Positions 956 through 55,143 of a DNA stretch of 64,000 nt are shown here, piece after piece. Numbering within the stretch: position 1 is the first letter of the stretch; every line of letters starts with the position of its first letter. The notes beneath the pieces were generated by a model. The model searched no databases. It was given only the letters and a program-made list of their open reading frames with translations, and was not told where the DNA came from. The DNA lies in the NCBI GenBank assembly GCA_965222615.1, contig CBDCUI010000009.1, forward strand, positions 32,001-96,000, in the 5' to 3' direction. Made by a program: the position numbers and the translations under genes. This DNA is from Gammaproteobacteria bacterium. Lineage in GTDB: Bacteria > Pseudomonadota > Gammaproteobacteria > UBA4575.

Positions 956-1813
956 TTACCCGCCTTCATTCATTCGATTTTTAATCCTTTGTTTTGTTTT
1001 TCCTCCTGGTTGATCAGGATAAGCGTCCTTGATTCCTCGTTCTTTATCGATCAATTCATCTACACCACCTTGCTTTTGATCTTTATGTGCTTGGGTCATA
1101 TCACCAAAATGCTCATCTCGCTCCTTTTGTTTTTTTGTTCTTTCTTTATCATGCTTACGTCGTTCTTTTGCGCTTAGTTTTTTAGGAGTCTCTTCTTTGA
1201 TTTCATCCGCACTAGTATCATTAGATTCCCCATCGTCACCACTATTTGATTCATTATTGAATGCACTGCTACCTGAAATATCAGGACCGATCGAGATAGT
1301 GTTTGGGTTTCTATCTAATATGTCTAGAGTGTTCTGAATAGTATTTACGGCAACAGCTGCAACGACTACTGTAAATGCTAGAAACCCAAATACTACTACT
1401 GCGTTCTCCCCATCCGGATCTACATACTTATACGGATTATTATTAACAAAAGCATAGCGGTTGAAAGAGTGCAGATTGGCCGGGTCCACACCAACTGGAT
1501 CTACCGCCATAAACCGCCCAATCTTAGAATCACAATAGCGGGCTCCAAGATAGGTTAAGCCCGTTGCCTCGTCTAAAGGTTTGCCGGTATGCCATTGTCG
1601 ATTATTTTTTGATTTGGGATCCTTCTCTACTCGCTCGCCAAAAGGCATATATTCTTCCTGCCACAACAGGGTTCCATTCTCATCCGTGGCGGCCACTGGT
1701 GAGCCCAACAAATCATTGTGGTAATAGGTAATCAGTACATCGGCCTGAACACTCGCCACCAAAAAGATTGAGAGCAGAATGTAGAAAAATGCATTAATTA
1801 TTTTTTTCATCAT
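956..1813 (-). CDS. Signal peptide + Rhs-associated core + variable C-terminal (toxin) domain
   Basis: MMKKIINAFFYILLSIFLVASVQA|D signal peptide; core motifs YYHNDLLGSP, YMPFGE, GLTYLGARY, GRFMAVDPVG, NPYKYVDPDG; then a hydrophobic segment and a charged tip. Start placed at 1813 because the upstream ATG (1849) is ATA in the second copy. Confidence 0.9.
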   Translation of the reverse strand: MMKKIINAFFYILLSIFLVASVQADVLITYYHNDLLGSPVAATDENGTLLWQEEYMPFGERVEKDPKSKNNRQWHTGKPLDEATGLTYLGARYCDSKIGRFMAVDPVGVDPANLHSFNRYAFVNNNPYKYVDPDGENAVVVFGFLAFTVVVAAVAVNTIQNTLDILDRNPNTISIGPDISGSSAFNNESNSGDDGESNDTSADEIKEETPKKLSAKERRKHDKERTKKQKERDEHFGDMTQAHKDQKQGGVDELIDKERGIKDAYPDQPGGKTKQRIKNRMNEGG

Positions 1814-1872
1814 TCTTATATCTTTACAATTTCTAGTTTGACATTGCATTAGTGTGAAAAGGAAATTCGATA

Positions 1873-4800
1873 TTAGTTACCACCTGAAGTCACATCCACT
1901 TTATCCAAAGCCATGCGTTCACTACCTGAATCAGGATTAGGACCTGTTGCTGTGAAGCGCAAATACTTGGTACCACTGGTGGCGAACGTAGTCGACATGG
2001 ATAAAGTTGGGAAGGAAGCACCACTGCTTACCGTATCATTCATTACACCAATTTGGGTGTACGGACCAGCTAAGCTCTCGGCCGCTTCAACTTGAAAAGT
2101 GCCACGTGATACATTCAACTGATACTGAAGATCAAGGCTATAAGTGCCTGCACTACTGACGGTAATCGGGAAAGTGACAAATTCACCGATCGCATTGCTG
2201 TGGTAGAGGAGGAACTGTCCGTTGCTGGCGCCAGTATTAGACTTAATAGAAGTGGTGGTGGTGCCATCACTATCGGCAATGGTGAGGTTTTCAAATTCAA
2301 ACGTAGTGGTTTGCCCTGCGGTCTGAATGGTCCAGGTAAAGGAAGCGTTATCGGTGCCACCATTGCCATCGTCTACTGTAACAGTGGTATTAAACGTATT
2401 TGCAGTGGTTACAGTACCGGTAATGAGGCCGGTGGCACTATTAATGCTCAATCCTGTAGGTAGTCCGGTTGCGCTGTAAGTTAAGGTGTCTCCGGCATCC
2501 GGATCACTGGCTTGAATTTGTACACTCACACTGCCGCCTTCGGTGTGAGTTTGATTGCCAGGGTTCGTAATGGTGGGGGGATTATTACTGCCACCACTAG
2601 TTTGTACATCCCAAGTAAAGCTGGCAGTGTCGCTGCCGCCATTGCCATCATCGACAGTTACGATGGGGTTAAAGGTTCCCGCTGTCGTTACCGTACCATT
2701 GATAAGTCCCGAACTGTTGTTAATACTTAATCCAGTAGGTAAGCCCGTTGCACTGTAAGTTAAGGTGTCTCCAGCATCCGGATCACTGGCTTGAATTTGT
2801 AAACTCACACTGTCGCCTTCGGTATGTGTTTGTGTGCCCGGATTGGTGACTGTCGGGGGAGTGTTGTTAGGACCTCCACCGCCCGAGGTTACATCCACTT
2901 TATCCAAGGCCATGCGTTCACTACCTGAATCAGGATTAGGACCTGTTGCTGTGAAGCGCAAATACTTGGTACCACTGGTGGCGAACGTAGTCGACATGGA
3001 TAAAGTTGGGAAGGAAGCACCACTGCTTACCGTATCATTCATTACACCAATTTGGGTGTACGGACCAGCTAAGCTCTCGGCCGCTTCAACTTGAAAAGTG
3101 CCACGTGATACATTCAACTGATACTGAAGATCAAGGCTATAAGTGCCTGCACTACTGACAGTAATCGGGAAAGTGACAAATTCACCGATCGCATTGCTGT
3201 GGTAGAGGAGGAACTGTCCGTTGCTGGCGCCAGTATTAGACTTAATAGAAGTGGTGGTGGTGCCATCACTATCGGCAATGGTGAGGTTTTCAAATTCAAA
3301 CGTAGTGGTTTGCCCTGCGGTCTGAATGGTCCAGGTAAAGGAAGCGTTATCGGTGCCACCATTGCCATCGTCTACTGTAACAGTGGTATTAAACGTATTT
3401 GCAGTGGTTACAGTACCGGTAATGAGGCCGGTGGCACTATTAATGCTCAATCCTGTAGGTAGTCCGGTTGCGCTGTAAGTTAAGGTGTCTCCGGCATCCG
3501 GATCACTGGCTTGAATTTGTAGACTCACACTGCCGCCTTCGGTGTGAGTTTGATTGCCAGGGTTCGTAATGGTGGGGGGATTATTACTGCCACCACTAGT
3601 TTGTACATCCCAAGTAAAGCTGGCAGTGTCGCTGCCGCCATTGCCATCATCGACAGTTACGATGGGGTTAAAGGTTCCCGCTGCCGTTACCGTACCATTG
3701 ATAAGTCCCGAACTGTTGTTAATACTTAATCCAGTAGGTAAGCCCGTTGCACTGTAAGTTAAGGTGTCTCCAGCATCCGGATCACTGGCTTGAATTTGTA
3801 AACTCACACTGTCGCCTTCGGTATGTGTTTGTGTGCCCGGATTGGTGACTGTCGGGGGAGTGTTGTTAGGACCTCCACCGCCCGAGGTTACATCCACTTT
3901 ATCCAAGGCCATGCGTTCACTACCTGAATCAGGATTAGGACCTGTTGCTGTGAAGCGCAAATACTTGGTACCACTGGTGGCGAACGTAGTCGACATGGAT
4001 AAAGTTGGGAAGGAAGCACCACTGCTTACCGTATCATTCATTACACCAATTTGGGTGTACGGACCAGCTAAGCTCTCGGCCGCTTCAACTTGAAAAGTGC
4101 CACGTGATACATTCAACTGATACTGAAGATCAAGGCTATAAGTGCCTGCACTACTGACGGTAATCGGGAAAGTGACAAATTCACCGATCGCATTGCTGTG
4201 GTAGAGGAGGAACTGTCCGTTGCTGGCGCCAGTATTAGACTTAATAGAAGTGGTGGTGGTGCCATCACTATCGGCAATGGTGAGGTTTTCAAATTCAAAC
4301 GTAGTGGTTTGCCCTGCAGTTTGAATAGTCCAGGTAAAGGAAGCGTTATCGGTGCCACCATTGCCATCGTCTACTGTAACAGTGGTATTAAACGTATTTG
4401 CAGTGGTTACAGTACCGGTAATGAGGCCGGTGGCACTATTAATGCTCAATCCTGTAGGTAGTCCGGTTGCGCTGTAAGTTAAGGTGTCTCCGGCATCCGG
4501 ATCACTGGCTTGAATTTGTAGACTCACACTGCCGCCTTCGGTGTGAGTTTGATTGCCAGGGTTCGTAATGGTGGGGGGATTATTACTGCCACCACTAGTT
4601 TGTACATCCCAAGTAAAGCTGGCAGTGTCGCTGCCGCCATTGCCATCATCGACAGTTACGATGGGGTTAAAGGTTCCCGCTGCCGTTACCGTACCATTGA
4701 TAAGTCCCGAACTGTTGTTAATACTTAATCCAGTAGGTAAGCCCGTTGCACTGTAAGTTAAGGTGTCTCCAGCATCCGGATCACTGGCTTGAATTTGTAA

Positions 4801-7800
4801 ACTCACACTGTCGCCTTCGGTATGTGTTTGTGTGCCCGGATTGGTAACTGTCGGGGGAGTGTTGTTCGATGAATTTGGATCTGTACCATTACGTATTTCA
4901 ACACAATCAGGAATTTGATCGCTATCGGAATCCGTTGAGCAGTCATCCCTTCTTGCAAAAAGCGAATTATTTAAATAAATATAATCTGTGTAATCTCCTG
5001 TCTGTGGATTCTTTTCGTGGAGTAACTGTCCATTTTGGCCATAGACTGAATATTTAATAATGTTTCCATTGTCACGTTCTATGGTGCGACGGTTATTGGC
5101 ATCATATTCATAATCCATATCTAAGCTTGATGAATCAACTGAAATCAGATTAGAGAGATCATCGTAGACGAAAGTTTGCATATTAGTTCCACGTTGGGTA
5201 ATGTTTCCGTACGCATCATAAGTAATGTTGTTGTAGTCACTCATCCCAGAAACTGAAGTTAACCTATTGGAAGCATCATAACTATAGGTTCTTACTGCCC
5301 CATCGATTAGCTTAGAGGTAATATTTCCAGTAGCGGAATAAGTGGCAGACCAGTTTAAATCACCTGATATGGAAGTTAGCCGATCTGCAGCGTCATAACT
5401 TAAAGCTTTATTTGTGGATCGTACTTGGTCATTAATATTTGTAATATTTGCTTTACCATCATAGGTGTAGGTTAGATTAACAATATCTGAGGCGCCACCC
5501 ACAAAACTTTGTAGAGTTTTTGGGAAAAGACGGTTGTTAAACTGAATATCTGAGACTGCACCATTTGCATATAAGATTGAATCGGGCCACCCAGTTAAAT
5601 GTGGTGTTACAGTAGAAGTGTTCCCATCAAAGTTTACATTACGAGGCCTACCAAGATTATCAGGATTGTAGGCAACTGTGATTCCGCTACCAACTCCAGT
5701 TGCACCTGGATAGGTTATGGTATTTAGAAAATCTAAACTACTATAAGTATAGTTCAACTTCATAGAATCTGTACCCATAGTGAGTTTTTCTTCAGTTAAA
5801 TTATCATTTGGGTCATAGATATAGTCCCAAGTAATGCTATCTTTAATAGATTTAGTGACATTATCATTTGCATCATAGATAAAGGTAACGTTTGGTGAAC
5901 TTGATCCGGGGTAGCGAATAAACTCCAATCGATTTAAATCATCATATTCAAATGTAGTGGTGCCAGAAGCACCAACTTTTCTCGAGGTTAAATTTCCCGA
6001 TGCATCACGACCAAGAATAGTAGTGCCCGTCTCAGGGTTAACGATAGAAGTTAAATATTTTCTAGAGTCATAGCCATATGCTCTATTCATACCACCTTGG
6101 TTGACCGCAGTAATTTGATCTAAGTTGTTTCTAGTAATAGTGGTTGGAATAATTGTGGTTCCACTTGAATTTTTTACATTAATACCAGTGAGTGAACGTT
6201 TGTTGGAATCGCCATAGGACCGATAGATTAGATCTGTATCTAGTCCACGTTCATTGGTTATACGCACAGTATTGTTATTAGTTAAATAGTTATAACTGAC
6301 ATTAACATTTGCACCATTTTCCGGATTTGGTTTTGAGATATTAGTAATACGATCAAGCGCATCGTAACTAAATGATGTGGGTCGATTAGGATTAGTGCCT
6401 TGATAAGGTTGTGCGGTCTGTATTAAACGTCCAGTAGCATCATAAACTGATTCATTTGTGATCGTAATTCCACGTGCTAAGTCTGAGGTTTCTCTTTTAA
6501 CCACTCGGCCAAATCCATCATAGCGCAAAATGTCTCTAAACTTATTAGCCCCACGCGTGAGGGTTCTTCTTGCTTGGCTGGAATCATTCACACTCCAAAC
6601 TATATTGACCGAATCATTGTGAGGTGGATCAATTAAGGTCAGTCGCTTTAAACTATCGTAGTCAAAATTTGTTTGAAACCCGCGACCGTTTCTTTCCCAA
6701 TTAATAGTGCCGTCTTGTTGATTGACATCACGCGTGATGATTTTACCTTCTGGATGATTTTCTGTTTCTGGAATGCCGCGGAAAAAGTTACTGAATGTAC
6801 GAATTTTTCCTCTGGGGTCCGTAATCTGGTTTACGTTTCCGTATAAGTTATCGTATTGAAATGAATTTGTTACACCATAGCGATTTTCTGATGTAACTTG
6901 TCCTTTATTGTTAAACGTACGAGTAATATTTCCAGGAATACCAGAAACTGCTTCTGTTTTCGTTAAACGCGTAAACCAATTGAATAAATTTGCAGTTTCA
7001 AAGGTTAAATCGGTAGTTTTAGTAGGGGTAGTAGCACTACCATTTTTACCAGTTTCAATAATTTTTTTGGCGTTACCATAGAAGTCATAATCAGCCAGTG
7101 GAAATTGTGTAATGTATGTAGCGCCGTCACGTACTGTATCTACACGTGTAAGTAATGGTGCAAAGACATCGTTATCGAATTTTGTTTCTCGAAATGGCCT
7201 TTTATGTAGTTGGTCCGAAATTTTTGATTTGGCACTTGCATCATTTTGCCAAGTCATCGTTTCTGTTTGTAAAGTTACATTTGATAAGCTTTTAATTTGT
7301 TTCTCTTGCATTAGACCCACTTTCCATAAATCACCAGTTTGATTTATGGTGTGAAAACTGAAGTGTTTGTATACAAATATCCCATGTGGTGCCGTTACAG
7401 TCGTAGTTTGTGGAGTCCCGGGGGCGGCACTAAATGGCACATTAAAATCATACGTCCATGTGCCAGGTGTGATGGATTGTCCACTCACTGCTCTTGTTTT
7501 AATGGACGTAGTCAAATCATTCGTATTAAAGCAAGTCCCTTGAGTATTGTTTGGTTCAAAACAAACTTTTTGATAGGTGTAATCAATGTTACCGTTCCAC
7601 GGCGTTGTGATTTGTTTTAATGCATGAGCACCTGCGCCAGTTGGGTTGCTTCCAGGCGTACCATTTCCATCATAATAGTTATAGCGCCAGCTAGAAAAAT
7701 CTTGACGCCTAACTCTTGTTAAGTGATAAAACGTTCCTGATACTCCAGAAACTAAACTGTATTCATAGATCCATTGAGATAAAATATCTGAAATCATTGT

Positions 7801-8670
7801 GACACGTGCATACGCTTGTGATGCATCCGCATATGTTAAGGTAACTGGATTGCCTTGTTGTACTCCACTAATATTTTTCATCGTAAGTGTATTCACGAGG
7901 TGCCCATGGCTTGGGCGGTTTATATAGGTGATATCAATATGGTTGCCAGAAGAGTGAATGATTCGAGTGGTGTAAAGTGTACCGGTTCCTGTATTTCTGG
8001 CACCCATTTCATATATTTTTCCATCGGGTGATGTGATGACTAATCCTTGAAATGATTGGCCAGCGCCGTCAAGTCCACTAGGCTGTGTAAAGTTTTGACA
8101 TCTAGCTCGCCAACGATCTGTAGTGATGTAATCGTTTGTAGTAATACCTGCTTGAGTCAAACTGGAACGATATAAAATTCTGCGACTGCCATCTTCACGT
8201 TCAAAAACCGGGCTATTTTCAGTGGTTTCCGTAGATTGAACTTGTGGACAAGTAGTGAAACTATTTACGTTTAATACCCGACCATAATTAATTGTCCAGC
8301 CTACACCTGCTCCAGTACTTGCAGTTCCAGATTCACCGCTAGTCAGCGAACCATTTTGTGGTGGTGTGTATACTCTACGTACTTCTAAATTAAATCCTGC
8401 ATGACCTGGAATAAATAAATCGACTTGTTGAACATTTAAAGCCCCAGAAAAATTATCAATAAAATCTACATCATTCTGATTTAGATAATCTCTAAAAGGA
8501 TAGAACCCTGGTTCGGAATAAAAATCAGGGATATGATTGGCGTACGTATTCGATGCTACTAATAAAAGTAAAAGCAGAACACGAAAAGTAAATTTAAAAG
8601 TTTTTAAAAATGGTTGTTTGCGATTAAGTAATTTGAAAATATAGACACACCAACCAGAATAGTTTTTCAT
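1873..8670 (-). CDS. Large secreted YD/RHS-repeat protein with C-terminal TSP3-like linker and 3x(Ig-like He_PIG x2 + CBM6/35-like) tail; no Rhs core
   Basis: Signal peptide (VLLLLLLVASNTYA); DUF6531-like DNFSGALNVQQVDLFIPG; many YD repeats (YDGFGR, YDALDR, YDDLNRL, YDAYGN); He_PIG motif LTYSATGLPTGLSINSATGLITGT; no DPxG core. Confidence 0.9.
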   Translation of the reverse strand: MKNYSGWCVYIFKLLNRKQPFLKTFKFTFRVLLLLLLVASNTYANHIPDFYSEPGFYPFRDYLNQNDVDFIDNFSGALNVQQVDLFIPGHAGFNLEVRRVYTPPQNGSLTSGESGTASTGAGVGWTINYGRVLNVNSFTTCPQVQSTETTENSPVFEREDGSRRILYRSSLTQAGITTNDYITTDRWRARCQNFTQPSGLDGAGQSFQGLVITSPDGKIYEMGARNTGTGTLYTTRIIHSSGNHIDITYINRPSHGHLVNTLTMKNISGVQQGNPVTLTYADASQAYARVTMISDILSQWIYEYSLVSGVSGTFYHLTRVRRQDFSSWRYNYYDGNGTPGSNPTGAGAHALKQITTPWNGNIDYTYQKVCFEPNNTQGTCFNTNDLTTSIKTRAVSGQSITPGTWTYDFNVPFSAAPGTPQTTTVTAPHGIFVYKHFSFHTINQTGDLWKVGLMQEKQIKSLSNVTLQTETMTWQNDASAKSKISDQLHKRPFRETKFDNDVFAPLLTRVDTVRDGATYITQFPLADYDFYGNAKKIIETGKNGSATTPTKTTDLTFETANLFNWFTRLTKTEAVSGIPGNITRTFNNKGQVTSENRYGVTNSFQYDNLYGNVNQITDPRGKIRTFSNFFRGIPETENHPEGKIITRDVNQQDGTINWERNGRGFQTNFDYDSLKRLTLIDPPHNDSVNIVWSVNDSSQARRTLTRGANKFRDILRYDGFGRVVKRETSDLARGITITNESVYDATGRLIQTAQPYQGTNPNRPTSFSYDALDRITNISKPNPENGANVNVSYNYLTNNNTVRITNERGLDTDLIYRSYGDSNKRSLTGINVKNSSGTTIIPTTITRNNLDQITAVNQGGMNRAYGYDSRKYLTSIVNPETGTTILGRDASGNLTSRKVGASGTTTFEYDDLNRLEFIRYPGSSSPNVTFIYDANDNVTKSIKDSITWDYIYDPNDNLTEEKLTMGTDSMKLNYTYSSLDFLNTITYPGATGVGSGITVAYNPDNLGRPRNVNFDGNTSTVTPHLTGWPDSILYANGAVSDIQFNNRLFPKTLQSFVGGASDIVNLTYTYDGKANITNINDQVRSTNKALSYDAADRLTSISGDLNWSATYSATGNITSKLIDGAVRTYSYDASNRLTSVSGMSDYNNITYDAYGNITQRGTNMQTFVYDDLSNLISVDSSSLDMDYEYDANNRRTIERDNGNIIKYSVYGQNGQLLHEKNPQTGDYTDYIYLNNSLFARRDDCSTDSDSDQIPDCVEIRNGTDPNSSNNTPPTVTNPGTQTHTEGDSVSLQIQASDPDAGDTLTYSATGLPTGLSINNSSGLINGTVTAAGTFNPIVTVDDGNGGSDTASFTWDVQTSGGSNNPPTITNPGNQTHTEGGSVSLQIQASDPDAGDTLTYSATGLPTGLSINSATGLITGTVTTANTFNTTVTVDDGNGGTDNASFTWTIQTAGQTTTFEFENLTIADSDGTTTTSIKSNTGASNGQFLLYHSNAIGEFVTFPITVSSAGTYSLDLQYQLNVSRGTFQVEAAESLAGPYTQIGVMNDTVSSGASFPTLSMSTTFATSGTKYLRFTATGPNPDSGSERMALDKVDVTSGGGGPNNTPPTVTNPGTQTHTEGDSVSLQIQASDPDAGDTLTYSATGLPTGLSINNSSGLINGTVTAAGTFNPIVTVDDGNGGSDTASFTWDVQTSGGSNNPPTITNPGNQTHTEGGSVSLQIQASDPDAGDTLTYSATGLPTGLSINSATGLITGTVTTANTFNTTVTVDDGNGGTDNASFTWTIQTAGQTTTFEFENLTIADSDGTTTTSIKSNTGASNGQFLLYHSNAIGEFVTFPITVSSAGTYSLDLQYQLNVSRGTFQVEAAESLAGPYTQIGVMNDTVSSGASFPTLSMSTTFATSGTKYLRFTATGPNPDSGSERMALDKVDVTSGGGGPNNTPPTVTNPGTQTHTEGDSVSLQIQASDPDAGDTLTYSATGLPTGLSINNSSGLINGTVTTAGTFNPIVTVDDGNGGSDTASFTWDVQTSGGSNNPPTITNPGNQTHTEGGSVSVQIQASDPDAGDTLTYSATGLPTGLSINSATGLITGTVTTANTFNTTVTVDDGNGGTDNASFTWTIQTAGQTTTFEFENLTIADSDGTTTTSIKSNTGASNGQFLLYHSNAIGEFVTFPITVSSAGTYSLDLQYQLNVSRGTFQVEAAESLAGPYTQIGVMNDTVSSGASFPTLSMSTTFATSGTKYLRFTATGPNPDSGSERMALDKVDVTSGGN
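1877..4867. repeat. Three near-identical 999-bp tandem intragenic repeats
   Basis: Sequence at 1892, 2891 and 3890 matches at an exact 999-nt offset; shadow ORFs recur at the same period. Confidence 0.95.
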
Positions 8671-39421: not shown

Positions 39422-39431
39422 ATAAGTCTAT

Positions 39432-39469
39432 GCGGGAATAGCTCAGCTGGTAGAGCGCAACCTTGCCAA
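39432..39469 (+). repeat. Left att site: 5' half of tRNA-Gly (38 nt, ends in the anticodon loop)
   Basis: GCGGGAATAGCTCAGCTGGTAGAGCGCAACCTTGCCAA, 37/38 identical to 55068-55105. Confidence 0.95.
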
Positions 39470-39782: not shown

Positions 39783-42700
39783 ATGAGTGACAATTTAGAA
39801 GCTACCGAGTTATCAAACGACATTCGCGAAAGGGCAGAGCTTATTGTCACTTTGCAAGAATACCTGGTGGGACAGCCAGGAACGCAAGCTGATAAAGCCA
39901 AGCAACTTGGTATAACTCAACCGAGGCTAAATGCTTTACTTAAAAACAAAGTAGAAAAGTTTAGTTTGGATGCACTCGTAAATATCGCAGCGAAAGCTGG
40001 TGTTCGAGTAAATTTACAGTTGCAAAGGATTGCTAAACCACTTAAATCGCCACCTACAATTCTCAATACATTCCAAGTTGGCCCTTTCTTTTCTCCAATG
40101 CCCGATGAATTGGGTTATTTGGATTCGACTCAATCTTCTAAAGTATTTCTAAATCTTTTACGTTGCGATGTAACTAGTGCAGGTATTAGTCCGTCAAACA
40201 TCGTGTTTTCGCTTAACACTACTACAAAAGACGGAGGTATTGACGCAAAGGTAGAAGTTGAATGTGCATCAAGCTCATTTCTTGATAATGGTAATGTTCA
40301 TTTCCAAGTTAAAAGCGGATCAAGTTTCAAGCCGTGGTATGCAAGCTGTCTTAAAAGAGAATTGTTTGGAAAATCTAATGCTCGCCCATCAAAAAAAGCT
40401 TTAGGAGATGCGGTTAAACATTGCCTTGATAATGGACACACATATTGTTTGGTTACGTTTGGGCATGATTTGCTACCAAAGGAACATACTAAAACTATAA
40501 ATTACTTAATAGAATATTTTCAGGCATGCGGTTATCGAAATCCCAAAGTTAAAGTTCTTGGTCAAGGTCAACTTATAGGTGAGATAGAAAAATACCCATC
40601 ACTTTGTCTCGAATTAAAAGGTTTATCGGTTGATGGGGCGCAGCCAATAGAATACTGGAAAAACAATGCTCAAATGCAGCTCCCATTATTTAAGGGAGAG
40701 CCGCAAAATAAATTTATTGATGAGATTCAAGACTTGATACGTAGTAATTCTGTTCAGCATATCAGAGTTATAGGTGAGCCAGGGATTGGCAAAACACGAC
40801 TTATTCTTGAGTCCGTGTCGGATCAATTTATTGCACCCACAGTTGTTTACATTAGTTCCGGAGAAGAATTTCAAAAAAGTAAATTGTTTAAAGAAATACT
40901 TAGAGTAGATAGAAACTTCTCCGCTACGTTAGTAATAGATGATTGTGATTCTCGCGATAGGACATCTATTTGGTCAGCTCTAAAAGGTAATTCCCGAATT
41001 AAATTGATAACAATTGATCATGGTCCCGAAGACAGTGATGACAGCAGTATGAAAACGATTCATTGTCCGTTGCTACCAAATGAGCAAATTGAAGAAATAT
41101 TAGCTAGCTATTTAGACAAAAAATATGACTTGCGTAATTGGGCAGAAATGTGTGACGGATCTCCTAGAGTAGCTCATGCAGTAGGAGAAAATTTAGCTAA
41201 GAATTCAAGTGATGTTTTAAAAACACCAGCTGATGTTCCAATCTGGGAAAGATTTATCATTGGACACAAACCGATTAATAGCGTTGATGCAGAACAATAT
41301 CGCATAGTTTTGCGTCACCTAGCGTTGTTTCAAAAATTTGGATTTGAGAATCCAGTTGATGAAGAAGCGCGCCACATCTGTACTCTTGTCCAAAAAGTTG
41401 ATTCGTCTATTAGTTGGGGAAAGTTCCAGACTATTGTCTTGCACTATAAAAATAAACGAATACTTCAAGGAAATACTACGTTGTATTTTGTCCCAAAAGC
41501 ATTGCATATTCATCTCTGGGTCGATTATTGGGAACAACATGGAAGAGGTTTTAAATTTCAAGACATATATGAGGAATTGCCCAGCGGCTTAAGGAACTGG
41601 TTTTTGCAGTTATTTATTTATGCTCACGATGTTGAGCCCGCAAAAAAAGTTGTAAAGAATATTTTATCCGAAGATGGGCCATTTTCAGATGTTAGCTTCT
41701 TTAAATCTAAGACTGGGTTGAAATTTATAAGTGTGTTAGCAGAGGCTGATCCTGCTTCTACATTAAGATTGATAGAAAGAACACTAGAAGAGTGGAGTCA
41801 TGAGGACATATATAAGCTTAATGAGGGGCGCCAGTACCTTGTATGGGCTTTGGAAAAAATATCTGTATGGAAAAATTTATTTGCTCGTAGTGTAGATGTA
41901 TTAACAAGGTTAGCACTCGCAGAGAATTCAAATTACGGCAATAATTCAACAGGGATATTACTAAGTCTATTTCAAATTGGACGAGGTTGGGCGCCAACGC
42001 AAGCACCCCCTGAAATGAGATTTCCCATTTTGCAAGAGTTTGTGAGGAGTGAAGATTCAGCAAAAAGAGAGTTAGGATTCAAAATGTGTGAAACATGGCT
42101 GGACACACATGGGGGAATGAGAACTATAGGTTCTGAGTATCAAGGTATACGGCCAACAATTAAATTCTGGGCGCCGAAAGTATGGGGGGAAATATTTGAT
42201 TGTTGGCGAGACGTACTGAAATTTCTATTTGATGAGATGAAAGGATTTGATATTGAAAACAAAAACAAAGCTGCGAATGTTTTAGTGCATGCTGCATTTG
42301 ACTTAATTGACACCAATGCGGTTACTGATCAAATCCATGACATATTATTTGAACTTGCAAATGATGAAGATATAAGCAAAAAGGGACTCACTAATTTTGT
42401 AATTAGGATGCTTAATAGACGAGATAGAAAACTAGAGTCTAGCCTATTAGAAAAAATAAATGAGCTAGACAATATGCTAACTGGTACCTCATTGATAGAT
42501 AGAATTACAAGATTTGTATTAAATACAAATTGGGAAGAGCACTATGGGATAAATGATGGAGATAATAGTGAATCAGATAGGCGAGTAAATGAGTTAGCAA
42601 AAGAATACATGGCTGATACTGAGCATTTCGATAAATATGCATTAAGCCTATTAAAAGCATCTGGACTTAAATTGCCACAATTCGCATATGAATGTGGAAA

Positions 42701-43838
42701 GCAAGCTACTGAGAATTTATTAGATGAAAAATTATTAAATTTGATCAAGGATAATGTCGAATACATAAATAGTGAATATTTAGGAGGTTATCTTTCTGGT
42801 ATTCGAGAGCTTGATGAGGATAGATGGGAATCATTAATTGTGTTATTGCTTAGAGATGTAAATACAAGAGACTTGGCAATAAATTGTATAACGAGATCCG
42901 GACTAAACGATTCCCTTATACATCTAATGCTAAATATGTATAAGAAAGAGGAGATAAGCTCTAGCGCATTTTTTAATTTCTATTATAAGCGTGAGAATTC
43001 AGGTGTTTCATTTGATGCGGTTAGAGAAATTATACATACCTTACTCCAATATCCCGACGACACATCAGTTAGTGTTGCAATTGAAATTTTATACGTTAAA
43101 TACATAGAAGATGAAATTAATCCTTTACCAGAAGAATTGGTACTTAACGCTCTCATTGCGCCCCCGATTAAAATTTATACCCAAGAAGCAATGTATGACT
43201 ATCATTGGGAAAAAATTGCAAATGTTTATTTGAAAGAGTATCCACATAGAAGCATGGAATTGCTAGGTTCAATTTTCGATAAAATTCTTAGTGGCGCCCA
43301 ATATTATTCTTACTCATTTTTACGAAAAACAGCAGCTAAGATTATTAAAAGCGAACCTGATTTATCGTGGAAATTAGTATCAAGGATGCTTGAAGATAAC
43401 GACGCAGCTTCTTTTCATTTAATGTATTGGTTTGATAGTGACAACATTGAGGAAGGTGAAGAGAATAAAAGCTTAGCAAGTTATTTCCCTATAGATAAAG
43501 TTATGAAATGGGTTGGTGAAGACGAAAAAATTAGGAAGAATAAAATAATTGAAATATTGCCTAAAACTTTAGAATTACAGAATGGCGGTTATCTAACTCG
43601 TGAATTTATTGATAAATTTTGTAACGATAAAAAAACCACTGGAAGGCTCATAGTGCATTTTTGGGCCGGTTCATGGAGTGGAAATACTAGTGCATACTTA
43701 TCAGGCAAGAGAGATATAGCTAGAAAATGGTTCAGTGAAATTGAATCAGCTAGGATACAAAAATGGTTAAGCTATTACATGGACTGGTTAAGTGAACGAA
43801 TTGAGAGAGAGTTGATTGAAGAAGAAAGAGAATTTTGA
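39783..43838 (+). CDS. XRE-HTH + PD-(D/E)xK-like nuclease + STAND-type P-loop NTPase + helical repeat protein; putative anti-phage defence
   Basis: TQADKAKQLGITQPRLNALL...FSLDAL (HTH), DGGIDA...FQVKSG (nuclease), GEPGIGKT and LVIDD (Walker A/B), CDGSPRV, long helical C-terminus. Confidence 0.75.
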   Translation: MSDNLEATELSNDIRERAELIVTLQEYLVGQPGTQADKAKQLGITQPRLNALLKNKVEKFSLDALVNIAAKAGVRVNLQLQRIAKPLKSPPTILNTFQVGPFFSPMPDELGYLDSTQSSKVFLNLLRCDVTSAGISPSNIVFSLNTTTKDGGIDAKVEVECASSSFLDNGNVHFQVKSGSSFKPWYASCLKRELFGKSNARPSKKALGDAVKHCLDNGHTYCLVTFGHDLLPKEHTKTINYLIEYFQACGYRNPKVKVLGQGQLIGEIEKYPSLCLELKGLSVDGAQPIEYWKNNAQMQLPLFKGEPQNKFIDEIQDLIRSNSVQHIRVIGEPGIGKTRLILESVSDQFIAPTVVYISSGEEFQKSKLFKEILRVDRNFSATLVIDDCDSRDRTSIWSALKGNSRIKLITIDHGPEDSDDSSMKTIHCPLLPNEQIEEILASYLDKKYDLRNWAEMCDGSPRVAHAVGENLAKNSSDVLKTPADVPIWERFIIGHKPINSVDAEQYRIVLRHLALFQKFGFENPVDEEARHICTLVQKVDSSISWGKFQTIVLHYKNKRILQGNTTLYFVPKALHIHLWVDYWEQHGRGFKFQDIYEELPSGLRNWFLQLFIYAHDVEPAKKVVKNILSEDGPFSDVSFFKSKTGLKFISVLAEADPASTLRLIERTLEEWSHEDIYKLNEGRQYLVWALEKISVWKNLFARSVDVLTRLALAENSNYGNNSTGILLSLFQIGRGWAPTQAPPEMRFPILQEFVRSEDSAKRELGFKMCETWLDTHGGMRTIGSEYQGIRPTIKFWAPKVWGEIFDCWRDVLKFLFDEMKGFDIENKNKAANVLVHAAFDLIDTNAVTDQIHDILFELANDEDISKKGLTNFVIRMLNRRDRKLESSLLEKINELDNMLTGTSLIDRITRFVLNTNWEEHYGINDGDNSESDRRVNELAKEYMADTEHFDKYALSLLKASGLKLPQFAYECGKQATENLLDEKLLNLIKDNVEYINSEYLGGYLSGIRELDEDRWESLIVLLLRDVNTRDLAINCITRSGLNDSLIHLMLNMYKKEEISSSAFFNFYYKRENSGVSFDAVREIIHTLLQYPDDTSVSVAIEILYVKYIEDEINPLPEELVLNALIAPPIKIYTQEAMYDYHWEKIANVYLKEYPHRSMELLGSIFDKILSGAQYYSYSFLRKTAAKIIKSEPDLSWKLVSRMLEDNDAASFHLMYWFDSDNIEEGEENKSLASYFPIDKVMKWVGEDEKIRKNKIIEILPKTLELQNGGYLTREFIDKFCNDKKTTGRLIVHFWAGSWSGNTSAYLSGKRDIARKWFSEIESARIQKWLSYYMDWLSERIERELIEEEREF

Positions 43839-48176: not shown

Positions 48177-48822
48177 AGTTATGAGGCTCACTTCCCTTTA
48201 ATAAACCTATAGGGATTCGATCCTCATAAATATGAACGGTCAGTTATTAAAACTATCTGATACTTCGTAACCAACCGATCATAGACATCACTAGGTTTTA
48301 GGGGTCGTTATCATCCCCGTTATTTCCTCCCTGGTGGTGTCTATCCACCTAGGTCCAGCTAAGGTCATCCTTAGGTCTCTCCATACATCTTCCATACCCT
48401 ATGGATGGATCTTATTGGTCCTATAACTATCTAGCTTGCCTTATGGGCTAGAGAATGGAATAGCCGGTATAGGTCTAAACTTCGCCTATGCTGGCTAGTT
48501 CCTAGCTTATAATGACCGCTAACGACCCAAAGCGGACATTCAAATCATGACAAACTAGATAGGCTGGATCTTATTCCGCTTGAACTGCCGATTTCTCACA
48601 TTTAAACATCGCTATCTATCTAATCCTGCTGTATGGTGAATCTAAGATTAGATATTCCTATCCCGATTTTCTTCCAGAGTTTCATTTCTTTGCCAGTTGT
48701 CGGCAATCATCTCTAATTACTGATTCCTTTGACACAGTGTCATTGGAGCACTAACACATGTGCAAATAGATTGAATGGGTATGCGCACAACAAGGCTCGA
48801 TCATCGAGCAAGGATATAAACA

Positions 48823-49089
48823 ATGAAACTATATGTAGGTAATTTACCTTGGAGCGTAACTGATGTGGATTTAAAAGAACTTTTTAGTGAGGTTGGCGAA
48901 GTAACAAGCGCCACCATTATCACTGATAGAGATTCTGGTCGATCCCGTGGATTCGGTTTCGTAGAAATGGCGAAAGAGGCTGGCCAACAAGCGATTAAGA
49001 AATTCAGCGAGCACGTAATTGATAACAGAACGCTGCGTGTCAATGAAGCAAATGAAAAACAACCCCGTCAAGCTGGCGGCCATTCTTAA
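48823..49089 (+). CDS. RRM (RNP-1) RNA-binding protein
   Basis: KLYVGNL (RNP2), RGFGFVEM (RNP1), LRVNEA. Confidence 0.95.
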   Translation: MKLYVGNLPWSVTDVDLKELFSEVGEVTSATIITDRDSGRSRGFGFVEMAKEAGQQAIKKFSEHVIDNRTLRVNEANEKQPRQAGGHS

Positions 49090-49169
49090 AAGGTAGTTGG
49101 GCTAATGATCTTCGGGCGACATAACAATGCCGCTCGAGATCCTTTGACTACACAAAAGGAGCTACTTCT

Positions 49170-49313
49170 ATGATCGAAGAAGAAGAAAAGAAGTTGATGG
49201 ATCAATACGGGGTCATTTCTCAGCAAAAAACGGTGTATCACTATAATGGGTACAACTATGACAATCTTGAAGATGCGATTCGGTATGCCAAGATTGACAC
49301 TCAGCGAAAGTGA
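49170..49313 (+). CDS. Small protein (47 aa), not in the ORF track
   Basis: AAGGAG RBS; MIEEEEKKLMDQYGVISQQKTVYHYNGYNYDNLEDAIRYAKIDTQRK. Confidence 0.7.
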   Translation: MIEEEEKKLMDQYGVISQQKTVYHYNGYNYDNLEDAIRYAKIDTQRK

Positions 49314-49352
49314 ATTTGGCCCGTTCCCACAAAATTCTATGAGGAAGCCAAC

Positions 49353-49745
49353 GTGAATACTATTAAAGATATCAAGATAAAAGGCTTAGACCCGAATCGA
49401 AGGCCCAGTCTAAAGAATAAAAACTACGTTGATATAATTTTCGAGCTGACTCAAAAAGCACCCAAAGACTGGTGCGCTGACTTCAATTTATTATTTTCAA
49501 AAGATAAGCACAACGCAAAGATAAATCCTGATGAGGGACGATATGTTGAGACATGGGTGAGAAATATTAACGACATTCCAAAAGAACTTGAGCTGATTAA
49601 ACAACTCATCGTAATCTGTAATAACAACTATATTGAACAAAAGCATCAAGAAGAACTAGCTTGGCAAAAATCTGAAAACAGCAAATCCAATAGCCGCAGC
49701 GATGAATTAGAAGGTATCCTGGCAAGCCTAAATTTCAATTCATAG
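49353..49745 (+). CDS. Hypothetical protein
   Basis: 130 aa, GAGG RBS, GTG start. Confidence 0.7.
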   Translation: MNTIKDIKIKGLDPNRRPSLKNKNYVDIIFELTQKAPKDWCADFNLLFSKDKHNAKINPDEGRYVETWVRNINDIPKELELIKQLIVICNNNYIEQKHQEELAWQKSENSKSNSRSDELEGILASLNFNS

Positions 49746-49776
49746 CTCTTGTCTGAAATTGGCCGAAAGGAATCAT

Positions 49777-50076
49777 ATGAATAAGGACTGCAAAGTCGTA
49801 CTTATTTCGAATTCTGGGTATAAAAAAGAACACAACGATCTATTGCAAGAGCTAATAGAAAATGAAATTGAACTTTTCTGTGCCGTGGGTATTGAGTGCC
49901 AGGAGTGGGAAGAAGCAATGGACTTGTTGTGTGCTGAGTTAGATGCAAATGACATTAAACCAAACGCTTTTTGCAACACGACATCTCATCCTAATGAAAG
50001 TGTTGAGGATGTGATTAAATTTGCCGAAAGTTGGAGCCAGAAAGGGGCAACAGAAGTAAAAATAATCGAGATTTAA
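49777..50076 (+). CDS. Hypothetical protein (cassette-like)
   Basis: ATG at 49777 after AAGGA, directly abutting the degenerate 30-bp site. Confidence 0.7.
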   Translation: MNKDCKVVLISNSGYKKEHNDLLQELIENEIELFCAVGIECQEWEEAMDLLCAELDANDIKPNAFCNTTSHPNESVEDVIKFAESWSQKGATEVKIIEI

Positions 50077-50219
50077 CTAATGTAGTAGATGACCGCTATT
50101 GGCCGAAAGCGGACATAAACTAAGCCAGTAAGGCAGAAATTAGGTTGGATTCCATAAATAACATGTTCAAAATGACTGCTAACGACCCAAAGCGGACATA
50201 GGAAATAATAATATTTGAT

Positions 50220-50654
50220 ATGAAAAAGATACCAACTTTAAAAGCCGCGATGACTCCTTTCCCATATTCTGTACAGCTTGAAACGACGCTTACTGCTGTA
50301 AGGAATTTGATGCAAACGCACAATATTCATCATATTCCAGTTATGAATAGTGGGAAAATTGTAGGTGTAGTAACCGCAAGAGATGTTGAGGCAAGGCAAA
50401 AGATGATGGATAGCGATGATAATGAACCATCACTTGAGGTATTGCATGTTCCTATGTCTAAGGCTTATATCGTCGATATCAATGAACCGCTTGAAAATAT
50501 ATTGTTAACAATGGCTAGTAAACGAATTGGGGCTACTGTCGTAACTAAACATGGAAAATTAGTAGGAGTCTTTACATATATTGATGCTTGTCGTTATTTT
50601 AGTGAATACATAAAAGCAAAGTTTCCTAAAAATAATGATAATGATGCGGCATAA
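50220..50654 (+). CDS. CBS domain protein (cassette-like)
   Basis: AMTPFP, IHHIPV, IVGVVTARD, LVGVFTYID. Confidence 0.9.
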   Translation: MKKIPTLKAAMTPFPYSVQLETTLTAVRNLMQTHNIHHIPVMNSGKIVGVVTARDVEARQKMMDSDDNEPSLEVLHVPMSKAYIVDINEPLENILLTMASKRIGATVVTKHGKLVGVFTYIDACRYFSEYIKAKFPKNNDNDAA

Positions 50655-50742
50655 GCATCAACTTTTGAATGACTGCTTTTGGCCGAAAGCGGACATAAAG
50701 AGCTAAGCCACATTAAAGCAACCTAGCTCTATCCCTGTAGCA

Positions 50743-53756: not shown

Positions 53757-54086
53757 ATTAGTGATGAAACTTTATCCCTTAGCGAAGCTGCACATCTATT
53801 AAAGATGTCACCTGAAGCGTTACGGCGCAAAGCTAAGGCCTGTGATATTCCTGGCGCAAAACCTGCCAAGGAATGGGTATTTATTAAGGAAGATTTACTC
53901 GCTTACATCCGCTCATGTTATGCTAAACCTGTAACTGTGTGGAGTGAGCGATCAACTGAAAAGGAGATCAATCAATGCCATACAAACGAAAAGACAATGG
54001 AGTCTATTACTCCAATTTTGAATCCAGAAGTGGAGAGCGGGTACGAAAGAGCCTTAGGACGCGTGATAGAAATGAGGCCATCATAA
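53757..54086 (+). CDS. Excisionase-like HTH protein (HTH_17), apparent ATT start
   Basis: ETLSLSEAAHLLKMSPEALRRKAKACDIPGAKPAKEWVF; AAGGAG 6 nt before ATT; in-frame TAA at 53751. Confidence 0.8.
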   Translation: MSDETLSLSEAAHLLKMSPEALRRKAKACDIPGAKPAKEWVFIKEDLLAYIRSCYAKPVTVWSERSTEKEINQCHTNEKTMESITPILNPEVESGYERALGRVIEMRPS

Positions 54087-55036
54087 AAGAGGCTGAATTG
54101 ATTGCGGCAGATAAGGGTGAAGTCGTACAGATTAACAATAACCGGAAAACTTGGCGTGATGCTGTTTACCGATACTGGAATGAAGTGGAAGGTAAAGCTA
54201 GCGCTGATTGTATTCAAATACATTTAAGGTTCTTGGATACATTCTTAGGAGATAAGTATCTCGATGAGATCAATGATGAACTTATCGAAGATATTATTGC
54301 TGCTAAAAGTAGTGAGAAAAACCGTAAAGGTGAGAAGCTATCCGGTGCTACAGTTAATCGATTAACGGCGACGTTAAAGTCGGTGTTCAATAGTGCAAAG
54401 AAATACAGATGGATCGACAACGTTCCGTATGTAAGAAAGTTAGAAGAGTCAGAGGGTAGGAGTAGGTATCTCACACCATCTGAATCTAAACGATTACTTG
54501 ATCATTGTGCTGAACACTTAAAACCGATAGTGACATTTGCTTTGCATACAGGCTTGAGAAAGCAGAATGTATTAAGGCTTAGATGGGAGAATGTAGACCT
54601 CGATCAAGGTAAGTGCTGGGTGCTTAGCTCAGAGCATAAAAACCGAAAGGCGAGGGGTGTTACTCTCAATAGTGTTGCTTTAGGGGTGCTACGAGAATTA
54701 GCTATATATAAGGTGTCGCCCTATGTATTTAACTATAGGGGGCGGCCTATTGGAGATGTGAAGACGGGACTTAAGCGAGCCTGTGAACGGGCTGGCTTAA
54801 AGGACATATCCTTCCACACATTTCGACATACTTATGCTTCTTTACTAGCACAGCAAAACGTTTCGACCCTAGTTTTAAAGGAGCTAGGTGGATGGAAGTC
54901 AATGCAAATGGCTCAAAGATACGCTCATCTTAATGATGACGGACTGCGAGAATACCAAGAATTGCTTGTAGGTTTGTCACAGTACTGTGACAAAAATCCA
55001 CCGCCCAAGTTAAGGCTAGTAAGTGGAAAATCGTAA
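53975..55036 (+). CDS. Tyrosine recombinase/integrase
   Basis: HTGLRKQN, FHTFRHTYAS, LGGWKSMQMAQRYAH; adjacent to the att site. Confidence 0.95.
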   Translation: MPYKRKDNGVYYSNFESRSGERVRKSLRTRDRNEAIIKEAELIAADKGEVVQINNNRKTWRDAVYRYWNEVEGKASADCIQIHLRFLDTFLGDKYLDEINDELIEDIIAAKSSEKNRKGEKLSGATVNRLTATLKSVFNSAKKYRWIDNVPYVRKLEESEGRSRYLTPSESKRLLDHCAEHLKPIVTFALHTGLRKQNVLRLRWENVDLDQGKCWVLSSEHKNRKARGVTLNSVALGVLRELAIYKVSPYVFNYRGRPIGDVKTGLKRACERAGLKDISFHTFRHTYASLLAQQNVSTLVLKELGGWKSMQMAQRYAHLNDDGLREYQELLVGLSQYCDKNPPPKLRLVSGKS

Positions 55037-55067
55037 GTGATTGAGTTAAATTAGGAAATTCGGTTAT

Positions 55068-55143
55068 GCGGGAATAGCTCAGTTGGTAGAGCGCAACCTT
55101 GCCAAGGTTGAGGTCGCGAGTTCGAACCTCGTTTCCCGCTCCA
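55068..55143 (+). tRNA. tRNA-Gly(GCC), reconstituted at the right att site
   Basis: 76 nt, GCGGGAA/TTCCCGC acceptor stem, anticodon loop TTGCCAA, GTTCGAAC, CCA. Confidence 0.97.

Follow-up and report, generated by a model that had tools for sequence, protein, structure and literature searches.

Palindromic sites that may bound mobile gene cassettes in a gammaproteobacterial tRNA-Gly island and in other bacterial classes

A stretch of 64,000 nucleotides from a gammaproteobacterium of the lineage UBA4575 (assembly GCA_965222615.1, contig CBDCUI010000009.1, positions 32,001 to 96,000) is examined here and is termed the window. It corresponds to C9:32001-96000 of the source genome, G000, which comprises 3.1 Mb in 9 contigs. 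Within a 15.6-kb island at a tRNA-Gly gene, the window carries an array of small genes separated by short imperfect palindromes, referred to below as hairpin sites. The chance is put at about even (roughly 0.5) that these palindromes are the end sites of widespread small mobile gene cassettes, moved by sequence-specific recombination through an enzyme encoded elsewhere. A preliminary description, made from the letters of the window alone, had proposed an integron-like array, with sites in alternating orientation and a distinct site-specific gene-capture system.

Results

Two classes of sites in the window

The window contains two or three putative cassettes (RRM-orf47-orf130; DUF7684; CBS), which form part of the cargo of the tRNA-Gly island. 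The features of the array, all on the + strand, are as follows.

48511..48540 (+): class A site, core CGACCC; putative 5' end of cassette 1 and start of the array; pattern match, 40.4 bits, top score in the genome
48541..49747 (+): putative cassette 1 cargo: 283-nt leader, RRM protein (48823-49089), orf47 (49170-49313) and orf130 (49353-49745)
49748..49777 (+): decayed class B site; putative 3' end of cassette 1; core TTGGCCGAAAG retained; aligns with the intact B site of the G001 cassette
49777..50076 (+): putative cassette 2 cargo: DUF7684 protein, ATG at 49777; Pfam PF24733, E=7.6e-10
50088..50117 (+): class B site, core TGGCCG; putative 3' end of cassette 2; pattern match, 35.3 bits
50118..50170 (+): linker of a B-A doublet, with GGTTGGA, common to other G000 doublets; from doublet alignment
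50171..50200 (+): class A site; putative 5' end of cassette 3; pattern match, 34.9 bits
50220..50654 (+): putative cassette 3 cargo: CBS-pair protein; Pfam CBS, E=1e-20, two stretches
50668..50697 (+): class B site; putative 3' end of cassette 3 and end of the array, with no A site after it; pattern match, 35.4 bits

The pattern ATGWCYGCT-N10-AGCGGWCAT matches the window at 48512, 50089, 50172 and 50669, on both strands in each case. These 8 matches compare with 0.01 expected by chance, and 8 or more were reached in none of 100 shuffles, so that the intact palindromes first described are confirmed. All four are the top scorers of the whole source genome, and their hairpins are predicted to fold with energies of -5.9 to -9.7 kcal/mol (z -2.2 to -4.2 against shuffles). 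As had been reported, a fifth, degenerate copy can be recognised at 49748, but it does not fold: its energy is -1.6 kcal/mol and 195 of 200 shuffles fold at least as well. In this copy the core is retained and the arms are lost.

The sites had been described as 10-bp arms around a 10-bp spacer. The inverted arms stand, but judged from many copies the commonest form is better described as a 28-bp site with two 11-bp arms and a 6-bp core (11-6-11). Two classes can be distinguished by the core, which is CGACCC and asymmetric in class A, and TGGCCG and nearly symmetric in class B. The right arm, AAAGCGGACAT, is common to both classes and almost invariant, and the 11-bp left arm is looser. The A/A mismatch noted previously is present in all four intact window sites, at left-arm position 4 and right-arm position 6; beyond the window it is frequent but not universal. 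Among class A sites, left-arm position 4 is A in 22 of 29 sites of the related genome G006, in 12 of 19 of Noviluteimonas caseinilytica (G041) and in 0 of 14 of a Caulobacter genome (G045), while right-arm position 6 is A in 27 of 29, 19 of 19 and 14 of 14, respectively. The changes in the left arm are uncompensated, and as a result most class A sites have the A/A mismatch in G006 and in G041.

Genomes of different bacterial classes, some AT-rich and some GC-rich, have nearly the same 28-mer. Because the right arm is fixed, the left arm varies without compensation, and the same letters are kept across base compositions, what is conserved is the sequence and not the pairing. This points to a protein that reads the DNA or RNA.

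The alternating orientation originally suggested is not borne out, as the asymmetry of the arms gives the four intact sites one common orientation. Nor are the two 10-nt spacers convincing reverse complements; a count by eye gives 6 agreements among the 10 positions in direct comparison and 5 when one spacer is reverse-complemented. In relatives, the asymmetric class A site holds a single orientation along arrays.

Probable cassettes opened by class A and closed by class B sites

The window segment 48511-49769 has 71% nucleotide identity over 1281 nt to a cassette in an array of the sister genome, G001, at a different chromosomal locus. In this alignment the two sequences are unrelated upstream of the A site, related from A to B, and unrelated past B. 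Relatives of orf130 were found on 4 metagenome contigs, where the next site is an intact B in 2, a decayed B in 1 and none detected in 1 (a contig of 1157 bp); the DNA beyond them differs in each. In a comparison with four metagenome runs, made on contigs, those of the soil runs X4 and X5 span 48510-50116, mostly with 1-26 differing letters per contig piece. The flanks of the island are almost uncovered by these contigs, and the bin 50319-50519 of the CBS gene is uncovered.

Two pairs of occupied and nearly empty loci were found between G000 and G001. At C9:829877-834362 a block of 4.6 kb, which runs from a decayed A site directly past a stop codon to a B site, faces about 40 bp in G001, and at C7:373238-374507 a block from an A site to a decayed B site faces 39 bp. 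A gene from each of the two inserted blocks is present elsewhere in G001. Another locus compared between the genomes was set aside as uninformative, its content differing between them and G001 having no site there. Joints between sites in the metagenome contigs were likewise considered as excision products or circles and rejected; they rest on 21-31 nt and derive from other repeat copies. No target duplication was seen at the four junctions examined, and no conserved short target sequence was seen beside the A sites.

Arrays open with a lone A site and close with a lone B site, and their internal junctions are B-A doublets (n=15, linker 9-55 nt) or single sites. The spacing of the window doublet recurs in G000 at C7:818943/819026 (83 bp) and C9:833017/833099 (82 bp). 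The copy in the sister genome, the metagenome contexts and the insertion/empty pairs together support, by comparison of sequences, a cassette that starts with A and ends with B, both of which would travel with the cargo.

Cargo genes and gene boundaries

It had been stated that the genes fit tightly between the sites and that the cargo includes RRM and CBS proteins, and both statements hold. The stop codon at 50076 lies 11 nt upstream of the site at 50088 and the stop at 50654 lies 13 nt upstream of that at 50668; the start at 50220 is 19 nt past 50200, and the decayed site runs into the ATG at 49777. Pfam assigns RRM_1 (E=1.2e-19) to the protein at 48823-49089, a CBS pair to the last gene and, additionally, DUF7684 to the gene between them; orf47 and orf130 match no Pfam family. 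B sites lie at a median of 30 nt past a same-strand stop codon, 29 of 58 being within 30 nt. The gene content between sites varies among the genomes compared, and sites are concentrated in variable arrays rather than in core intergenic regions. Neither sites without a link to gene boundaries nor an invariant content between them, the two observations that would speak against gene capture, were encountered.

A terminator scan gave 7 terminator-like hits, 0 of which coincide with a site, and no known RNA family was found by Rfam at E values up to 1. The latter applies also to a 330-nt stretch free of open reading frames (ORFs), at 48180-48510, between a gene for a 639-aa helicase-like protein and the first site. 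Small RRM proteins recur as cassette cargo in three genomes: in the window (48823-49089), in G006 (L033:4563-4844 and L034:7954-8211) and in G001 (L030:9128-9391).

Sites across the source genome

With a profile built from the sites of relatives, 34 sites of G000 score above the best score on the reversed genome. Although ORFs of at least 100 aa cover 87% of the DNA, 30 of the 34 are intergenic, which extends the position at gene boundaries to the whole genome. The sites outside the window are clustered at C7:813-822 kb and at C9:253-260, 783-787, 833-834 and 925-927 kb, and many of them are halves. The sites are not special to this locus; they belong to a dispersed repeat family, which resembles repetitive extragenic palindromes (REPs) in its dispersal and occurs in several bacterial classes.

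Insertion sequences (ISs) are associated with the sites. G000 has 11 IS110-family copies of three types, and at least 8 of the 11 lie within about 120 nt of a site of this census. Of the three types, one interrupts class A sites and two lie directly beside class B sites. The hairpins are thus specific targets of IS110-family elements in G000; other members of this family target REP and attC sites. The IS110-family genes observed lie at C7:813676-814101, 816846-817265, 820172-820597 and 820884-821303, at C9:253806-254225, 256196-256621, 259573-259998 and 961667-962092, and at C8:558-977. IS30-family transposases (HTH_38 and rve domains) occur in the same clusters, at C7:815449-816654 and C9:256877-258037, and one IS30 element is apparently inserted in a class A core, with the halves of the site at 256801-256816 and 258048-258064. 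The ends of the IS30- and IS110-family elements in the arrays are unrelated to the hairpin sites. Long variants of the doublet, considered as covariation in favour of one long hairpin, were rejected, their flanks being the ends of inserted IS110 or IS30 elements.

Distribution in other genomes

With one mismatch allowed, the motif was found in 19 of 41 related genomes (G000 included), and the reversed motif, used as a control, gave 0 matches in every genome. The 12 site-rich genomes range from 10 to about 230 matches, with 230 in G006, 181 in G019 and 174 in G002. E. coli genomes gave no motif match. A scan for the exact 28-mer, with one genome per species, returned at least 116 stretches from many taxa and spans the Alpha-, Beta- and Gammaproteobacteria. 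Among the matches listed are Xanthomonadales, Sphingomonadales, Caulobacter, Kiloniella, Halomonas, Pseudomonas and betaproteobacterial metagenome-assembled genomes (MAGs), as well as MAGs labelled Nitrospinaceae and Nitrospirota and one labelled Mycobacterium. The motif is also present in 6 stretches of IMG/VR viral contigs. Plasmid records gave no match for the doublet of the window; 13 records (Pantoea 11, Pseudomonas 2) carry a GC-rich doublet, and it lacks annotation in both regions that were inspected.

Arrays of small ORFs with co-oriented sites were seen in G001, G006, G041 and G045. In N. caseinilytica, 47 sites separate small ORFs in a 38-kb array (2,772,768-2,810,744), with B-A linkers of 9-45 nt, and in the Caulobacter genome there are two opposed arrays with class A sites only. 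The cargo of the G006 arrays is miscellaneous and includes RRM, OsmC, MarR, rhodanese, cupin, nitroreductase, DsrC, MerR and SelR proteins and several split genes.

Search for the enzyme

Candidate enzymes were sought in a site-rich set of 12 genomes with at least 10 motif matches each. The integron integrase (TIGR02249 above its cut-off) is encoded in 2 of the 12, the Y1 transposase (Pfam Y1_Tnp) in 4, a serine recombinase (Resolvase) in 3 and the IS110 family in 3. The integron integrase was found in 0 of the 5 genomes G001, G006, G041, G043 and G045, and Y1_Tnp was not found in G006, G007, G009, G019, G022 and G038, all of them site-rich. XerC/D-like genes are the only recombinases found in every site-bearing genome examined.

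Genes next to the sites gave no lead. A Pfam search on the two ORFs flanking the motif at 76 diverse loci (140 proteins) found no recurrent family, and all-against-all clustering of 2288 ORFs from site-bearing loci returned only generic families (two-component, ABC, MFS, SDR, TIR-TPR) plus IS30. No recombinase was found in the flanks of the G041 and G045 arrays, where ORF calls are crude in these GC-rich genomes. With the origin placed at dnaA and the terminus at dif, 66 of 79 class A sites in G006 and 14 of 18 in G014 have their gene-sense strand on the template of the lagging strand.

The island and the rest of the window

The array had been described as lying among phage-like genes. The island around it does have an integrase and a tRNA-Gly attachment, but its only further phage-like feature is a weak match to a small terminase. 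Its boundaries are as follows.

39431..39469 (+): left boundary, a repeat of the 5' part of tRNA-Gly; 22-nt exact repeat within a longer similar stretch, just after pgsA
53975..55143 (+): island tyrosine integrase (53975-55036) and complete tRNA-Gly (55068-55143), the right boundary

The order at the left is uvrC, pgsA and then the copy of the tRNA-Gly 5' part. The integrase matches PF00589 (E=1.2e-30) and phrog_1 integrase (E=1.8e-65), and the tRNA-Gly at 55068-55143 was detected by both ARAGORN and Rfam. As the 5' part lies at the far end and the complete tRNA beside the integrase, integration would have rebuilt the tRNA from a 5' part borne by the island, which is the less common arrangement.

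The island also encodes a fragment of a serine recombinase. A 1351-aa protein at 39783-43838 (+) has an N-terminal HTH_37 domain and matches PADLOC PD-Lambda-4_A over nearly its full length (E=8.6e-40); as a PD-Lambda-4-like protein of the island, it is a candidate for defence against phages. Elsewhere in the window, a 2265-aa protein at 1873-8670 (-) has six He_PIG Ig-like domains and RHS repeats, and is followed by an RHS-core ORF at 956-1849 (-). Three near-identical sets of ORFs, 999 bp apart, suggest a long internal tandem repeat in this RHS region.

Discussion

The findings can be brought together in a model in which a cassette would begin with a class A site and end with a class B site. 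Cassettes would be stacked head to tail, and neighbours would be divided by B-linker-A doublets or by single A or B sites. Recognition of the sites as DNA would fall to a trans-acting, sequence-specific protein, most likely a recombinase that acts on the 28-bp site, as a core-type site of 11-6-11 geometry, or on its folded single strand. This recombinase would excise cassettes and insert them at other sites, and it would not be the integrase of the island. As to the distinct gene-capture system originally proposed, the variable content, the gene boundaries and the mismatch with both attC and dif speak in its favour, but no dedicated recombinase was found, and capture itself is what we infer.

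Several observations weigh against the cassette model. In the 12 site-rich genomes, no candidate enzyme family co-varies with site abundance. Matches to tyrosine recombinases number just 4 in G001 and 6 in G041, and none lies within about 94 kb of the G041 array, which also argues against a role for the integrase of the window's island. A simple two-strand tyrosine exchange between A and B is hard to reconcile with their different cores. Arrays also contain A-gene-A runs and genes on the opposite strand. The bias toward one replication strand is confounded by gene orientation and by the non-independence of sites that share an array. Neither excised circles nor junctions were seen. Most G000 sites outside the island are decayed or split by ISs, so the cassette system may be inactive in G000. 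Finally, all of the evidence is comparative, and the same patterns could result from general homologous recombination at the repeated hairpins.

The most substantial alternative, although it is regarded as unlikely, is that the hairpins are extragenic palindromes of the kind formed by REPs and bacterial interspersed mosaic elements (BIMEs), with a structural or RNA-level function such as mRNA stabilisation, processing, or binding of gyrase or integration host factor. They would spread as small units, and the exchange of genes would result from RecA-dependent break points at dispersed repeats of 28-113 bp. Such palindromes, including REPINs, are short and extragenic; they are found downstream of genes, singly, as dimers or in clusters, and serve as targets for IS110-family elements. 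All of this is true of the hairpin sites. The dispersal of the sites at 10 to about 230 matches per genome, the position of B sites shortly after stop codons, and the better folding of hairpins relative to shuffles agree with this explanation, as does the lack of a dedicated enzyme. The closest published class found is the CGTC-tagged REP superfamily, which the text description in PMC3733652 likewise places in several phyla and without a dedicated transposase. In that description, the four families have a CGTC or TGTC tag, 8-9 bp stems starting with AT, loops of 4-5 nt and a CCA tail. Some hairpin copies begin with ACGTC or ATGTC, but in this comparison with the text description alone the stem (9-11 bp in the hairpins), the loop (6-10 nt) and the tail do not fit (PMC3733652). 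The hairpin dimers run head to tail, come in two classes, have genes between the units and bound transferable cassettes, unlike REPs, BIMEs and REPINs. Their ends read ATGW...CAT without the GTAG tag of REPs that have a REP-associated transposase (RAYT), no RAYT flanked by sites was found, and the single Y1_Tnp gene of G000 has no adjoining site. Classical REP families are lineage-specific, whereas the 28-mers are nearly identical across classes. The uncompensated left arm shows that pairing is not the conserved feature, and the sites are not terminator-like and are concentrated in variable arrays rather than in core intergenic regions. The REP-like explanation accounts for the missing enzyme and for the position after stop codons, but less well for the identity across classes, for the uncompensated arms and for the polarity of arrays that open with A and close with B, both sites travelling with the cassette.

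Three further explanations retain an enzyme. It is improbable, though conceivable, that cassettes move as single-stranded DNA in the manner of IS200/IS605 elements, A and B being left-end and right-end hairpins read during replication by an HUH nuclease acting in trans. Like ends of the IS200/IS605 type (PATE-like), the hairpins are co-oriented, similar yet distinct, and accompanied by no evident target duplication; the conserved stem mismatch would provide polarity, and the lagging-strand-template bias is of the kind known for IS608 and other elements that move as single strands. On the other side stand the confounding of this bias by gene orientation, the six site-rich genomes in which no Y1 HUH transposase was found, the single Y1 gene of G000 that is not flanked by sites, and the lack of a conserved short target beside A. 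Very unlikely is a reading of the doublets as unusual attC sites, in which the arrays would be integron arrays, or clusters of attC sites lacking an integrase (CALINs), moved by the integron integrase. Integrons and CALINs also consist of small, mostly co-oriented accessory genes of miscellaneous function between conserved imperfect palindromes, the same cassette occurs in different arrays, and arrays may lack a nearby integrase. G000 has the gene for a true integron integrase, which scores 490.5 bits (cut-off, 265), and a B-linker-A doublet is able to form a single long, imperfect hairpin (-26.4 kcal/mol). The attC site, however, carries the R'' (RYYYAAC) and R' (GTTRRRY) boxes at the ends of an imperfect palindrome of 57-141 bp, and 0 of 15 doublets have outer boxes of these two kinds. 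The 9 attC sites beside the G000 integrase all have the invariant GTT, in contrast to the palindromes, and the integrase-linked arrays of G000 and G002 contain no hairpin site. The hairpin sites show no link to IntI, given the scarcity of the integrase among site-rich genomes, and are 28-bp palindromes conserved in sequence across classes; their cassettes have a site at each end, with a lone A at the start and a lone B at the end of an array, instead of one 3' attC. The complete integron of G000, with its integrase at C9:397324-398262 and at least 9 classical-attC cassettes at about 391000-397300, is unrelated to the hairpin arrays.

Equally remote is the use of the sites as dif-like sequences by the host XerC and XerD, as in the pdif modules of Acinetobacter plasmids. 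Both kinds of site are 28 bp long with 11-6-11 geometry, surround single accessory genes or small modules and adjoin no dedicated recombinase gene; one arm of the hairpin is well conserved and one is looser, the ubiquity of XerC/D-like genes fits, and the G000 cluster at C9:253-260 kb adjoins the chromosomal dif at C9:261038. Yet the dif sites of G000, G001, G006 and G014 are canonical and have no arm sequence in common with the hairpins, whose cores are GC-rich and of two kinds. Moreover, pdif modules are bounded by sites in opposite orientation, while the hairpin sites are co-oriented, mainly chromosomal and spread over many classes. Both the attC and the Xer readings fail their defining tests, in agreement with the original statement that the sites match neither consensus. 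A likeness can also be drawn to mobile insertion cassettes (MICs, such as MIC231) and miniature inverted-repeat transposable elements (MITEs), which are non-autonomous, may carry passenger genes, lack a transposase and have short conserved ends, 5'-TG...CA-3'. The ends of these elements match the inverted repeats of an IS whose transposase acts in trans, and they produce a target-site duplication. The ends of the hairpin cassettes also read TG...CA, but no parent IS or matching transposase was found for them and no target duplication was seen; each of their ends is palindromic, and they form long tandem arrays.

No paper containing the four 15-nt pieces of the sites was found, and the literature on palindromic cassettes, CALINs, Xanthomonas attC sites, pdif modules and REPs yielded no description of the family; subscription journals and supplements lay outside this search, and a description may be in print. 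It is proposed tentatively, at somewhat less than even odds, that the sites define a third bacterial system of gene cassettes beside integrons and Xer/pdif modules. Its single-gene cassettes, which would have an asymmetric 28-bp site 5' of the gene and a near-symmetric one 3' of it, would be exchanged among Alpha-, Beta- and Gammaproteobacteria and beyond and would build arrays of dozens, with an enzyme encoded away from the arrays and outside the usual recombinase families tested.

In annotation, cassettes can be delimited precisely by the sites, which also explain the insertion points of the three IS110-family types in G000. Even if the family is a REP-like repeat, its conservation almost letter for letter across AT-rich and GC-rich genomes of different classes is unusual, and the 28-mer would be a useful marker of variable regions. 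If the cassette model is true, the 38-kb array, with 47 sites and no recombinase within 94 kb, calls for a novel enzyme or for a housekeeping enzyme in a novel role, and surveys centred on integrons may miss such a pool of cassettes. If the sites do mediate capture, several bacterial classes draw on a common pool of single-gene modules, whose movement does not need integron integrases.

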